From assembly GCA_965661285.1 (NCBI GenBank), contig CBFIDD010000001.1:340852-404851 (forward strand): 64,000 nt of DNA, in the 5' to 3' direction. The position numbers and the translations under genes are program-made. Within the stretch, counting starts at the first letter, position 1. The number at the start of each line of letters is the position of its first letter. Source of the stretch: Poseidonia sp. Its GTDB lineage: Archaea > Thermoplasmatota > Poseidoniia > Poseidoniales > Poseidoniaceae. Below, piece by piece: positions 15,115 through 19,701 of the stretch. The notes beneath the pieces are model-generated. The model saw only the letters and a program-made list of their open reading frames with translations. It was not told the origin of the DNA and searched no databases.

Positions 15115-15795
15115 ATGGCGTTCACCCCAACGGAGCGTTTGCATCTCGGTGCAGAGGCGGAAGTTTGGAAGGGGGAATGGTTTGGAAAACCCGCCGTTCG
15201 AAAGCAGCGTCGGCCGCGCTCGTGGCGCCATCCAAACCTTGACCACCGCCTAGGCGTTCGGAGGATGATCAGCGAAGCACGCCTGCTGATTCGTACCCGA
15301 AAAGCGGGCCTCTCGGTCCCCTCGGTGTGGGATTTGGATTACGAAGGCGGCCAACTCATCATTGAACACTTGGCCGGCAGGCCGCTCATCGAGGTTCTCA
15401 ACCACGAACAAACGAGTCAAGAAGAGGCGAAAACCATACTCCACCGTGTTGGTCATGCGGTTCGTCGCCTGCACCGAGAAGCGACGACTCACGGCGATTT
15501 GTCCAGCAACAACATCCTCATCGACGGTCAAGAGGTCCACCTCATCGATTTCGGTTTGGCTTCCATCGAGTACGATGTTGAACGCTTTGGCATTGACCTG
15601 CACGTGCTGGATGAAATCCTCGGAGCCTCTCACCCGCAATGGGAAGGCGCCATCGATTGGGTCGTGGAAGGCTACCTCGCAGCGGAAGAGGAATTGGGCC
15701 CGGCGCCACCCCTGCAGGGTGGGAGCGTCCCCTCAGCCAGCGAGGTGCATGCACGCCTTGAGGACATTCGAACCCGTGTTCGGTATCACGGTTGA
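15115..15795 (+). CDS. bud32: KEOPS complex kinase/ATPase Bud32
   Basis: LGAEAEVW, RHPNLDHRL, HGDLSSNNIL, LIDFGLA, C-terminal RVRY. Confidence 0.9.
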   Translation: MAFTPTERLHLGAEAEVWKGEWFGKPAVRKQRRPRSWRHPNLDHRLGVRRMISEARLLIRTRKAGLSVPSVWDLDYEGGQLIIEHLAGRPLIEVLNHEQTSQEEAKTILHRVGHAVRRLHREATTHGDLSSNNILIDGQEVHLIDFGLASIEYDVERFGIDLHVLDEILGASHPQWEGAIDWVVEGYLAAEEELGPAPPLQGGSVPSASEVHARLEDIRTRVRYHG

Positions 15796-17849
15796 CGTTC
15801 TTGGCGTCGCTCACTCTGCCGCTGCCACATGTTCCATGCGACCACGACGAAGGCGGCCAGCACACCGGCTTGAAGAACGATACTGGAATACAATCGCAAT
15901 TCTGGCTCCCAAGAGTGAATCTCCACCGAGACCCCCTCGTCGTCCATTTGGAAATACACGAGGTGCTGCTCCAAGACTTGAGGGCCCCACTGGTCGTTGG
16001 AATCCGAGGTCAAAATGTGGGATGTGTTTGTATCAAGTTCGGTGAAGTAGATTTCACGGTCGAGGTATTTTTCCTGCGGTGTAAGCGGGTTGTAATGGTC
16101 TCGCACTGACCATGCAAGGATGCCGTAATCAAGGGAGAGGTCCGAGACGTGGTATTTTGGGTTGCTTGCCAACCATTGTTCAGCCGTCGTTCGGTTGTAG
16201 AGCACCAAACGGTCGGTTGCCGAGACGTTCACGGTCACGGCAAGGTATTCTCGATTAAAGGCCATGTTTTGGATGCTGGCGTTCTCCATGTCCACCGGAA
16301 TTCCCCACGATGCGAGAAGGGCGTCTTCTTCCACCGGTGCGGTAGCGTTGATGAGGTAGGCGACTTGACCTTGGACGCCGAGTTGAATGATGTTGACGGC
16401 CATGGGCCTTTCGGCTGTGACATAGGCAATTTCCGAGCCGGTGCACTCCATGTTCTCGATGCTGGTGGGCCGCTCTTCGCCAAGCAGTGATTCACCGTTG
16501 AGGTTCATCACGTCCAGTACCCCGTCGGACGTGTAGGCAATGACCGTCGACCCTGCTTGTTCGCACAACAGCAGGTGTTCGTGCTCACCGAAGGGAAGGG
16601 CGGACAACGGCGTTTGCGGTTGGTTGACATCGTACACCATGAGGGTTGTTCCGTTAGAAGCAACCAATCGGTCGCCCTGCAGGGCATAGGTCGATGCCAA
16701 CGAAAGGTCAGGAACCTCCACCACGACGGGTTCAGAGAAGTCAAGCGAGAGGTCGTGAAGCAGGAGCGAGGCACCATCGGTTTGGTTGTCGAGGGTCACA
16801 AGCCAACCGTCAGCGGCGGCGGCGGCCTCGGGAGCCTCAACACCGCCGGCGGGAAGCGCTCGATGCGTCAAATCCCACGTGATGACGGCGGCGACGATCA
16901 CCAAGATGACCACAGCGATATGTCCGGTTTCACGGCTGGTGGGTGTTTTGTACTGAGCAAAAAGGCGACCGCACCGGCCCTGAATCCACGACCACGCTTT
17001 GCTCGGTTGGGTCAGCACGGTGACAACCCGTGCGTTCATGGTTCGCTCGTCAAAGAATTTCCACCAGGAATTCGAAGTGCGGTCAGCCATGGAAACGGCC
17101 GCCCCTGCGATGAGCATTCCCCCGATGATGTCCACGAACCAGTGAATGCCGAGATAGATGATGGTGAAGGCCGTGAGCAGGGTGTAGGCAAACACCGTGT
17201 ACCTGTATCGGTTCCAGCGGCGGTCTTCATCAAATCGCGTCAAACAAAGCCATACTGCGAAGGGGATGCCGATGTGAAGCGAAGGCATGCCGTTGGTGAA
17301 GGGGTCAATGCGTCGAAACCAATCGGCAATCTCCGGCGTCAACGTGTAGGCAAGGGTTTCCATCTCAGGGATGGTGTCGCCCGTCACTCGGACGTTGAAA
17401 AACAGGTAGAACGGGACGGCAAGAAGGTAGACCCAAGCGATGGAGAGCGTGACGCGGTCAGCAAGCCATCGTTCGTCAAAATAGGCAAAATAAAACACGG
17501 AAACATAGCAAATAAACATGAATCCTGCAACGTAAAAATGGGTCAATGCCGTCGTCAGCCAATCCGCCTCAAAGGTTTGTTGAACCCAGAGCACCAAATT
17601 GCCCTCAATGGCCCAGATGTACGGTGTCATGTCGAGGCCTGTGCTCGCCATCAACAGCCGATCGATTTGGTCAAGCGTGTCTTTTGCATTGTAGATGGCG
17701 AACACGATCAGGATGTGCACCCAGTACCTTCGAAAAAAGTCAACAAAGGGGGGAAGTGACAACCTGGCCCACGGCGGTTTGAACACCGGCAGCAAGATGA
17801 CGCCCAGCGCCAAAGCGCTGATCATCCAAGTCAGGTAGACGCTCTGCAA
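15786..17849 (-). CDS. PAP2-superfamily (Aur1/IPC-synthase-like) membrane protein fused to a large beta-rich extracellular domain with C-terminal TM
   Basis: YLFFNV, NGMPSLHIG, IYLGIHWFVDIIGG motifs; after a further TM, ~330 aa of short beta-strand repeats and a terminal TM plus basic tail. Confidence 0.8.
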   Translation of the reverse strand: MQSVYLTWMISALALGVILLPVFKPPWARLSLPPFVDFFRRYWVHILIVFAIYNAKDTLDQIDRLLMASTGLDMTPYIWAIEGNLVLWVQQTFEADWLTTALTHFYVAGFMFICYVSVFYFAYFDERWLADRVTLSIAWVYLLAVPFYLFFNVRVTGDTIPEMETLAYTLTPEIADWFRRIDPFTNGMPSLHIGIPFAVWLCLTRFDEDRRWNRYRYTVFAYTLLTAFTIIYLGIHWFVDIIGGMLIAGAAVSMADRTSNSWWKFFDERTMNARVVTVLTQPSKAWSWIQGRCGRLFAQYKTPTSRETGHIAVVILVIVAAVITWDLTHRALPAGGVEAPEAAAAADGWLVTLDNQTDGASLLLHDLSLDFSEPVVVEVPDLSLASTYALQGDRLVASNGTTLMVYDVNQPQTPLSALPFGEHEHLLLCEQAGSTVIAYTSDGVLDVMNLNGESLLGEERPTSIENMECTGSEIAYVTAERPMAVNIIQLGVQGQVAYLINATAPVEEDALLASWGIPVDMENASIQNMAFNREYLAVTVNVSATDRLVLYNRTTAEQWLASNPKYHVSDLSLDYGILAWSVRDHYNPLTPQEKYLDREIYFTELDTNTSHILTSDSNDQWGPQVLEQHLVYFQMDDEGVSVEIHSWEPELRLYSSIVLQAGVLAAFVVVAWNMWQRQSERRQERQP

Positions 17850-17924: not shown

Positions 17925-18278
17925 CTACCATGCACCGTGGACATACGGTTTACCACGATCGGGGTCGCGACGGTTGGCAAGGTCGTAGACGCGCTCGAAT
18001 CGGTAAATGCCGCTTGAACAACCTTGTTGCCACTCAAATGCCAACGCATACTTTCCAACCGTGCGAACCGAGGGCTTTTCTGCAGGAAGCGCCTCAATTT
18101 GACGTCGAAGCGTTCGGCTCGTGTCATCTTCGTTTCGCATCGGCGAGCACTTTGCGCATGGACATGCGTGGCGTAGGTCATCGTAGGTGACCGTGTATTC
18201 CTTCCCGTCGTCGTAGGTGAGCACCATGTCCTGAGCGCGGCGTTCAAGCTTCTTGAGGTTCGGTAGAATATCACTCAT
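17925..18278 (-). CDS. DUF971 / GBBH-like N-terminal domain protein
   Basis: LRHACPCAKC, VGKYALAFEWQQGCSSGIYRF match the DUF971 pattern LR..CPCA.C...VG.YAl...w.dgh..GiY. Confidence 0.85.
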   Translation of the reverse strand: MSDILPNLKKLERRAQDMVLTYDDGKEYTVTYDDLRHACPCAKCSPMRNEDDTSRTLRRQIEALPAEKPSVRTVGKYALAFEWQQGCSSGIYRFERVYDLANRRDPDRGKPYVHGAW

Positions 18279-18287
18279 TGGGCCACC

Positions 18288-19298
18288 TCAGATGATTTCC
18301 AGCCCGCCGTCTGCACCGTCCGTCAATTGTTCTTGGATGGCGGACACGACCGCTGCGAACGCCAGTGCAGAAGGGCCATCCGGTTCGGACACAATGCGGT
18401 GCACACCGTCATCGCCTCCTCGAACAAACCCGGGATCGAAGGGAAGGGCACCGAGGAAAGGCACACCAAATTCTTCGGCCGTGTCTTTGCCTCCACCCTC
18501 TTTGAAAATATCGAGGGTGACCGAAAACTTCCCGTCATCGTCCGCCGTAGCAGCCAGCGTTTTGCCACCCGGAGCGGCGATGTTGACCTCCGTGCCTGGA
18601 GCCGTGGTTCCGTTGACGGTGAACCCGCTCATGTTCTCCACAATGCCCAACACAGGGACCTTCAGCGACTCTGAAAAGGTGATCGATTTCCGGCTGTCCA
18701 ACAACGCCACCTGTTGAGGCGTGGTGACGATGACCATGCCGTCAATGTCGGGAAGGGATTGCGCCACCGTCAGCGGTTCATCGGATGTTCCAGGTGGGAA
18801 ATCGATGATGAGATAGTCGAGCTCACCCCACTCAACATCGCCGATGAATTGCTGAATGGCGCCGAGTTTGATGGGTCCGCGCCAAACAACGGGCGTGTCT
18901 TCGTCTTCCAACAGAAACGCCATGCTGATGACTTTGACGCCGAGGTGGCCTTGTGCCGGATGAATGCGCTTGTTCTCAACATGAAGGCGGCGGCCGTCCA
19001 AGCCCATCATCTTGGGAACGTTTGGCCCGGTGATATCGATGTCGAGAATTCCAACGGTGTGGCCTTGCTGAGCGAGCGAAAGTGCAAGGCCCGTTGACAC
19101 GGTGGATTTGCCCACGCCGCCTTTGCCCGAGAGAACCATGATCTTGTGCTTGATTTTTCGGCCGATCTCCTCCATCGCCATCTTTCGCTTCATTTGAGCG
19201 TAGGCCTGCTCCATTTGCTTCTGCTCTTGCGGGGACGGCCCGGCAGGTGCCTCGTTTGCTGACCCCGGTGTGTTGATGGAGACTGGTGAATCCGCCAT
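18288..19298 (-). CDS. Mrp/NBP35 (ApbC) family P-loop ATPase, lacking CxxC
   Basis: SGKGGVGKST, DIDITGPNVP, VVWRGP, WGELDYLIIDFPPGTSD, VTTPQ, GIVENMS. Confidence 0.93.
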   Translation of the reverse strand: MADSPVSINTPGSANEAPAGPSPQEQKQMEQAYAQMKRKMAMEEIGRKIKHKIMVLSGKGGVGKSTVSTGLALSLAQQGHTVGILDIDITGPNVPKMMGLDGRRLHVENKRIHPAQGHLGVKVISMAFLLEDEDTPVVWRGPIKLGAIQQFIGDVEWGELDYLIIDFPPGTSDEPLTVAQSLPDIDGMVIVTTPQQVALLDSRKSITFSESLKVPVLGIVENMSGFTVNGTTAPGTEVNIAAPGGKTLAATADDDGKFSVTLDIFKEGGGKDTAEEFGVPFLGALPFDPGFVRGGDDGVHRIVSEPDGPSALAFAAVVSAIQEQLTDGADGGLEII

Positions 19299-19341: not shown

Positions 19342-19701
19342 CTACTCGTTCATGAGGTGACTCACTGAGAGTCTTCGGTCCAAAACCACGTGAACACCAA
19401 GCGTGGCTCCAACGATACCTACCACCCAAGGCAGCGACCATGCCATGTCCCCGTACGCCCATGCCAGACCAAACGAGAGCGGAAAACCGAAGAGGAAGCC
19501 CAACCGGTTGGTCGCTCGGCGCGGCCCGCTGAGATTTGCGCCATCGAACAGAACGGTCACCGGGCCGAAGAACACGACCTGAACGCTGATGGAGAGGGCC
19601 ACCACAGCGAACGCGAGGTCCATGTTTTGTGAGGCAAAGACCACGTGCAGCCCAAAGAGAAGGGCGAGAATGGCGAGGTTCGCCCCCAAGGCCCGCCACA
19701 T
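19342..19701 (-). CDS. Small hypothetical membrane protein (4 TM)
   Basis: Four hydrophobic segments in 119 aa; fills gap co-oriented with mrp. Confidence 0.65.
   Translation of the reverse strand: MWRALGANLAILALLFGLHVVFASQNMDLAFAVVALSISVQVVFFGPVTVLFDGANLSGPRRATNRLGFLFGFPLSFGLAWAYGDMAWSLPWVVGIVGATLGVHVVLDRRLSVSHLMNE

Follow-up and report, generated by a model that had tools for sequence, protein, structure and literature searches.

The Poseidoniales (MGII), an abundant marine archaeal order, rely on an Mrp/NBP35-family ATPase without any cysteine. A short beta insert replaces the CxxC motif of the family, and a separate protein of family DUF971 carries four conserved cysteines. We infer, with a probability of roughly three in four, that Mrp and DUF971 cooperate in Fe-S delivery or repair. 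As to the mechanism, we tentatively prefer, on sequence comparisons, an Fe-S carrier made of two proteins, in which DUF971 would hold the cluster and Mrp would be the ATP motor. DUF971 would receive a transferable cluster (2Fe or 4Fe) from the SUF system; the ATP-switched Mrp dimer would dock DUF971 and drive either loading or release to apo-targets. A structural role is proposed for the insert, which would either brace the tip of the dimer, once bridged by the cluster, or form a docking surface. As the Mrp has no cysteine, the ATPase and the candidate metal site belong to different, small proteins that can be assayed one by one, which opens both the role of ATP hydrolysis and the function of DUF971 to direct tests. 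Should the cluster be on DUF971, this would be a new Fe-S-binding fold, and HCF101 and the bacterial Mrp-DUF971 fusions would read differently.

The window, i.e. the whole stretch of DNA that was analyzed, covers 64,000 nt of Poseidonia sp. (assembly GCA_965661285.1, contig CBFIDD010000001.1, positions 340,852-404,851 of the forward strand). Statements on single copies in this genome refer to an assembly that is 93% complete. The following elements of the ATPase gene were considered, in window positions:

18288..19298, minus strand: mrp, P-loop ATPase of the Mrp/NBP35 family, 336 aa, 0 Cys; PF10609 E 2e-89; sole Mrp found in the genome.
19155-19232, minus strand: N-terminal helix of Mrp, residues 23-48, QMEQAYAQMKRKM; extra compared to canonical Mrp; 87% identical within the family, 46% across families.
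19104..19127, minus strand: deviant Walker A GKGGVGKS, residues 58-65, intact, as are DxDxTGP, WRGP, DxPPG and ENM.
18513..18623, minus strand: four-stranded beta insert of 37 aa, F226-L262, which replaces the CxxC hairpin; Big_6 match, strands in the AlphaFold2 model.

The protein has the PF10609 domain, the fold, the deviant Walker A (GKGGhGK[ST], as defined in PMC6345978) and the Walker B of the Mrp family. Its AlphaFold2 model, built from an 82-row alignment, has 8zkc (E 9e-24), 2ph1 and 6g2g as top Foldseek matches. Motifs were counted in 113 distinct Mrp orthologues from loci of all three Poseidoniales families: Poseidoniaceae (f1), a Thalassarchaeaceae-type family (f3) and a third family (f2). 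GKGGVGKS is kept in 110 of them, and WRGP, DxDxTGP, DxPPG and ENM are each present in all 113. A profile search of 121 Poseidoniales genomes gave one strong Mrp match in 117 and two in none, no match extending past profile position 197 of 246. The sole strong Mrp of L049, filed as a Verrucomicrobiales bacterium, is also of MGII type (94% identical); this is probably a mislabelled MGII genome.

The original prediction, made on the window by itself, stated that the 336-aa Mrp is devoid of cysteine, and the translation of the reading frame at 18288-19298 (minus strand) agrees. The CxxC that holds the bridging [4Fe-4S] cluster of canonical Mrp/ApbC carriers is missing here and in all the Poseidoniales orthologues (0/113), although its retention in close orthologues had been named as what would overturn the prediction. 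From the P-loop onward, 85 of the 113 orthologues have no Cys, 26 have one and 2 have more, and no Cys position is common to all. Among the best homologues the same insert is found in 119/120 (one unparsed), and none has CxxC at the site. The loss of cysteine is thus neither an assembly artefact nor a strain oddity, and both the loss and the insert, whose conservation in MGII was in question, extend over the whole order. Thermoplasmatota Mrp outside the class carry CxxC in 46 of 47 cases and CxC in one, for a sample of 30 top profile scorers, biased towards intact proteins, and 17 hand-picked ones. Lacking cysteine, the MGII Mrp cannot hold the usual bridging cluster. The ATPase core is 78% identical across families (overall range 78-95%) without any broken frame. 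This conservation, in proteins that all lack CxxC, argues for a carrier in which DUF971 holds the cluster, and it stands against gene decay. We consider it very improbable that the gene is decaying, or that the Cys-free Mrp holds a cluster of its own with ligands other than Cys. Plant HCF101 shows that ligands can relocate within a chain (PMC2805927); against such self-binding, most MGII proteins have no Cys from the P-loop, share no Cys position and have no invariant His in the insert. The N-terminal helix may serve in docking or in the dimer.

The insert occupies exactly the segment (nt ~18513-18623) that had been placed between ENMSG and DIF instead of CxxC. The residues run E221-N-M-S-G225, then F226...L262, then D263-I-F; canonical Thermoplasmatota Mrp read F-x-CPxC-x4-D-[IL]-F at this site, and the insert is net ~27 residues longer than their short F-x-CPxC hairpin. 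A resemblance to bacterial Ig-like strands had also been proposed, and it is borne out: taken alone, the insert matches Pfam Big_6 with 30.4 bits (cut-off 27.6, E 4.8e-7), and the AlphaFold2 model has strands at 226-231, 237-242, 246-251 and 257-262 (pLDDT 88-96). A match to NCBIfam NF033510 (E 2.2e-6) falls under the cut-off of that model. Of 148 loci, 144 have an insert of 37 aa; the remaining 4, from the two f2 genomes and from two of f3, have one of 44 aa. Two of the seven short inserts scanned are above the Big_6 cut-off, the rest scoring 19-27 bits; the long inserts (4/4) match CarboxypepD_reg, below cut-off. No complete beta-sandwich was found, with profile coverage restricted to positions 12-53 of 83 (Big_6) or 1-43 of 82 (CarboxypepD_reg) and four strands in the model. 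Since the short form matches part of one family and the long form part of the other, the insert looks like about half of an Ig-like or transthyretin-like domain, obtained by capture or convergence. Turn glycines, one proline and core hydrophobics are kept, no Cys or His is invariant, and identity across families is 35% compared to 78% for the core; taken together, this points to a structural role. A profile of 112 distinct inserts revealed no donor in the same genome (next best E 0.89), which leaves a weak tblastn match on contig C2 (E 0.10) unsupported. The best score of an ESM Atlas search with the insert was 0.87, which gives leads only.

The elements of the partner gene and of the junction are the following:

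18279..18290, minus strand: mrp stop overlapped by a Shine-Dalgarno-like GAGGTG; 9 nt to the DUF971 ATG.
17925..18278, minus strand: DUF971 protein (PF06155, GBBH-like N-terminal fold), 117 aa; E 1.7e-16; sole copy found in the genome.
18147..18164, minus strand: C39-x-C41-x-x-C44 motif (C39-P-C41-A-K-C44), invariant in 26/26 rows of 32-90% identity.
18018..18020, minus strand: C87, putative fourth ligand, at the alignment position of the DGH His in 3luu and 2l6n; invariant in 26/26.
17925-17963, minus strand: C-terminal tail DPDxGxPYVHGAW, conserved in f1 and f2, missing in f3.

A DUF971 gene 9 nt downstream of mrp, with CPCAKC plus another Cys, had been predicted; the cysteines are C39, C41, C44 and C87. 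The protein has the PF06155 domain and the corresponding fold (model against 3luu: Z 11.1, rmsd 2.0, 86 aligned; against the BBOX1 N-terminal domain: Z 8.7), with Cys87 in place of the His of a Cys3His metal site. This fourth ligand is Cys in 13/13 DUF971 of f2 and f3 and in 87/92 of f1, the other five being unparsed or masked. Among distant DUF971, taken as the lower 124 of 150 profile matches, this ligand is His in 91, and 12 combine CxCxxC with the fourth Cys (Cys4). Three of these 12 are Mrp fusions, and CxxC is absent in 3/3. On a DUF971 tree with the ligand columns masked the Cys4 state requires 4-5 changes, and hence arose more than once, a point in favour of DUF971 as cluster holder. 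A single origin had been suggested by a clade gathering 44 of 45 rows (SH-aLRT 83) with the ligand column included; the clade dissolved once it was masked. At ~100 columns the tree has too few positions to place the MGII DUF971. DUF971 is single-copy in 120/121 Poseidoniales genomes, including those of 1.2-1.5 Mb, and was found in 1/151 Thermoplasmatota genomes outside the class, which also supports the preferred carrier.

The same site admits a close rival reading, which we hold possible by analogy with the HypAB pair. The four cysteines of DUF971 would bind structural Zn and make it an adaptor, and a metal-free Mrp dimer would be an ATP switch acting on an apo-target or on the cluster of an A-type, Nfu, SufT or HCPCC-DUF59 protein. 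The BBOX1 N-terminal domain, which has the same fold, contains a CxCxxC...H (Cys3His) site that binds structural Zn. A change from Cys3His to Cys4 is a common variation of Zn sites. Both points weigh against a cluster on DUF971, and the first of them for the adaptor. PDB 2l6n has SPSAE in place of the Cys triad, so the domain exists without ligands, which also fits the adaptor. HypB of T. kodakarensis, an Mrp-family ATPase without CxxC, is among the folds closest to the MGII Mrp model (TM 0.63-0.64); PMC7055735 describes it as having no metal site of its own and as forming an ATP-dependent 2:2 complex that enhances HypA, a Zn-site protein. What a Zn adaptor leaves unexplained is the change from His to Cys in both lineages that lost CxxC next to DUF971, whereas fusions bearing CxxC keep His. 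The biochemical function of DUF971 is described as unknown, despite its fusion to HCF101 and its genetic link to Mrp (PMC7980591, bioRxiv 10.1101/072470), and as undefined in PMC11838916. Cofitness of DUF971 and Mrp has been reported in Shewanella/Pseudomonas, with DUF971 termed an 'FeS cluster maintenance protein' (bioRxiv 10.1101/072470; PMC12041740).

Gene order was then compared between families, with two neighbouring elements given for context:

15786..17849, minus strand: PAP2-family membrane protein, downstream; directly after mrp in most f3 loci.
19342..19701, minus strand: hydrophobic ORF of 119 aa, co-directional, 43 nt upstream of mrp; no Pfam family.

The gap between mrp and DUF971 is 9 nt in 52/78 loci and 8-10 nt in 68/78, and GAGGTG would play a Shine-Dalgarno-like role; judging from these sequences the two genes are probably translationally coupled. 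The adjacency, whose conservation in MGII was also in question, holds for Poseidoniaceae, where DUF971 directly follows mrp in 106/109 loci (the 3 misses are at contig ends, and some genomes are possibly counted twice), and fails for the other two families (0/20 loci), in which DUF971 adjoins pus10, away from mrp. With f1 and f3 as sisters to the exclusion of f2 (95/85) and the pus10 site common to f2 and f3, the arrangement in f1 seems to be the derived one, most simply explained by a relocation of DUF971 to the side of mrp in the ancestor of Poseidoniaceae. The PAP2 gene, which in f3 mostly follows mrp directly, marks the position that DUF971 has in Poseidoniaceae. The hydrophobic ORF is present in the five Poseidoniaceae loci compared and absent from the loci of the other families. 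A derived adjacency with a conserved 9-nt gap speaks for the two-protein carrier, against which it must be said that half of the order keeps the genes apart. The constant neighbours of mrp are LMWPc, PAP2, Alba and nadA, not an Fe-S assembly operon, and no hypA or hydrogenase gene was seen among the scanned neighbours of the mrp-DUF971 locus. A promoter and terminator scan gave nothing above shuffles, with sigma-70 patterns that are ill-suited to archaea.

This genomic context could also suit an Mrp repurposed away from Fe-S or metals, e.g. a positioning or assembly ATPase of MinD/ParA type, for which the beta module would be an interaction surface and DUF971 an incidental neighbour. Two of the three families have the genes unlinked, no Cys or His of the insert is invariant, and other carriers of the genome cover Fe-S delivery. 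We nevertheless hold this improbable: WRGP and ENM are invariant, DUF971 is co-retained in 120/121 genomes, apparently moved beside mrp and is tightly coupled to it, and both the published cofitness and a parallel in Chlamydiae point to a conserved partnership.

This parallel comes from a metagenome scan with distant Cys4 DUF971 as queries, which returned 31 loci. Twenty-three of them (L255-L277) form one bacterial lineage, in which a CxxC-less Mrp lies directly upstream of a Cys4 DUF971 in 21/23, as separate genes in 19 and fused in 2; the remaining 2 have too little flank. P0349 was placed with Chlamydiota by Atlas. The chlamydial loci are flanked by an NTP/NDP translocase region on one side and, directly downstream of the pair, by a Mn/Fe ABC transporter operon, presumably ytg-like. 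The other 8 loci comprise one CxxC-less Cys4 fusion, one Cys4 locus lacking mrp within 3 kb, four MGII-like loci and two of His type. The chlamydial pair resembles that of MGII in that CxxC is lost, the fourth ligand is Cys and the genes are adjacent or fused; it differs by an ApbC-type ATPase (VxRAP for WRGP) with a short Cys-less loop and no insert. No description of this pair was found in the literature searched. That an unrelated ATPase without CxxC accompanies a Cys4 DUF971 favours a cluster on DUF971, as does the opposite state: Mrp-DUF971 fusions bearing CxxC keep His in 10 loci of the sister order (called MGIII here, a name inferred from its placement in the same class), in G170, in P0246 and in 4/4 proteobacterial plasmid fusions, 3/4 of which lie beside NifU-family or SUF genes.

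Several observations run counter to a cluster on DUF971. The query was biased towards Cys4, so that the chlamydial set counts as one event, and the correlation between CxxC loss and Cys4 rests on about two independent events. At least one Cys4 DUF971, that of L278, has no mrp within 3 kb. The fusions of MGIII genus g24 (L233-L254, e.g. L233:1123-2502, minus strand) lost CxxC independently, in 20/20 loci, with a short Cys-less loop and no insert; their DUF971 keeps CPCAHC, with a fourth position that is not His and not Cys (6/6 sequences read), while sister genera keep CPEC and His. CxxC was thus lost there without any fourth ligand, and the g24 fusion is a prokaryotic parallel to plant HCF101. 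Arabidopsis HCF101, without CxxC, binds and transfers [4Fe-4S] through C128, C347 and C419 (PMC2805927), and DUF971 of Viridiplantae/land plants is without CxCxxC (PMC7980591); the DUF971 cysteines are hence not the sole substitute for CxxC. A wider proposal, which we regard as rather unlikely, is that Cys4 DUF971 is an unrecognised Fe-S carrier fold, that the cluster site moved from Mrp to DUF971 in MGII and independently in environmental Chlamydiae, and that a pair of captured half-Ig modules clamps the tip of the MGII dimer in place of the bridging cluster.

The original prediction had cited the Mrp-DUF971 fusion of plant HCF101 and proposed either a split scaffold, with ligands supplied in trans by DUF971, or an Mrp repurposed away from Fe-S binding. 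HCF101 has DUF59, ParA and DUF971 on one chain; in MGII they are separate genes and the Mrp has no DUF59. In a 48-row ATPase tree, from which the insert was removed and which left out plant and PVC HCF101, the MGII ATPase clusters with native Thermoplasmatota Mrp that bear CxxC (100/100); the fusions (99/97) and the chlamydial proteins (100/100) form other groups. Forcing it together with the MGIII/G170 fusions was rejected (AU p=0.0044), the hypothesis having been framed after a first quick tree with a weak (72) sisterhood. The tree and the AU result rule out an origin of mrp and DUF971 by splitting of HCF101; the MGII ATPase descends from the native Thermoplasmatota Mrp, and DUF971 would be a separate acquisition. 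The MGIII order has HCF101-like (DUF59)-Mrp-DUF971 fusions. In G170 (L168, L169), a Thermoplasmatota genome outside the class, an HCF101-like fusion coexists with a plain archaeal Mrp; it may illustrate the situation from which MGII and MGIII each retained one of the two.

The genome of the window holds other Fe-S proteins. A complete sufC-sufB-sufD-sufS-sufE-sufT operon with a divergent Nfu-like gene lies on contig C1:2500-8300 (L214, L217, L220); an A-type carrier, two Nfu-like proteins, SufT and an HCPCC-DUF59 protein are also present, and IscU was not found in this 93% complete genome. The HCPCC-DUF59 gene, a second stand-alone DUF59 at C5:118530-118823 (L215:1444-1737, minus strand), has its HCPCC invariant in 18/18 genomes read and was found in 24/27 other Poseidoniales genomes searched. 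It is a further candidate for a Cys-bearing partner, and with it each of the three domain types of HCF101 has its own gene in MGII. Pairwise comparison with the fused DUF59 of MGIII gave no similarity. Its position 5-10 kb from the f3 DUF971 site, considered as a linkage, is explained by a conserved block with pus10; the block presumably also includes rpl21e, rpoF and ksgA. With the SUF set, the A-type carrier, the Nfu-like pair and HCPCC-DUF59, the cluster could sit on other proteins, which tells against a cluster on DUF971 and for the Zn adaptor. A prediction of the complex (Mrp dimer, ATP, Zn and one DUF971), run without folded controls, gave 0.20, 0.49 and 0.19 against a mark of 0.32 and has no bearing on binding in either direction.

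The MGII system belongs to the Mrp ATPase family without being a canonical carrier or an HCF101. No description of its Cys-free Mrp or Cys4 DUF971 was found in the open-access literature, supplements aside. Fe-S carriers of the Mrp/NBP35 type are nearly universal; in canonical members the bridging cluster is bound by an essential CxxC, and the role of ATP hydrolysis is described as unclear (PMC6345978). With Mrp/ApbC/Nbp35/Cfd1/Ind1/MrpORP (PF10609; 8zkc, 2ph1, 3kb1, 6g2g) the MGII ATPase shares the fold, the deviant Walker A and the other motifs; it differs by the lack of CxxC and of any Cys, by the beta insert of 37 or 44 aa and by the extra N-terminal helix. HCF101 and the prokaryotic fusions likewise associate Mrp with DUF971, and plant HCF101 is also without CxxC. 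Unlike these, MGII has separate genes, another ATPase lineage, no Cys on the ATPase chain and an Ig-like insert, and its DUF971 is Cys4 instead of Cys3His or Cys-less. HypB/HypA (3vx3, 5aun) similarly combine an Mrp-family ATPase without CxxC with a separate Cys4-Zn metallochaperone on which it acts, whereas HypB serves nickel delivery to hydrogenase with HypA as partner, has no insert and is about 30% identical. Finally, the stand-alone DUF971 of Shewanella/Pseudomonas and the BBOX1 domain share the fold of the MGII DUF971, the former also having a genetic link to Mrp in trans; the MGII protein differs by its Cys4 site, by the tail DPDxGxPYVHGAW (f1 and f2) and by a partner Mrp without CxxC.
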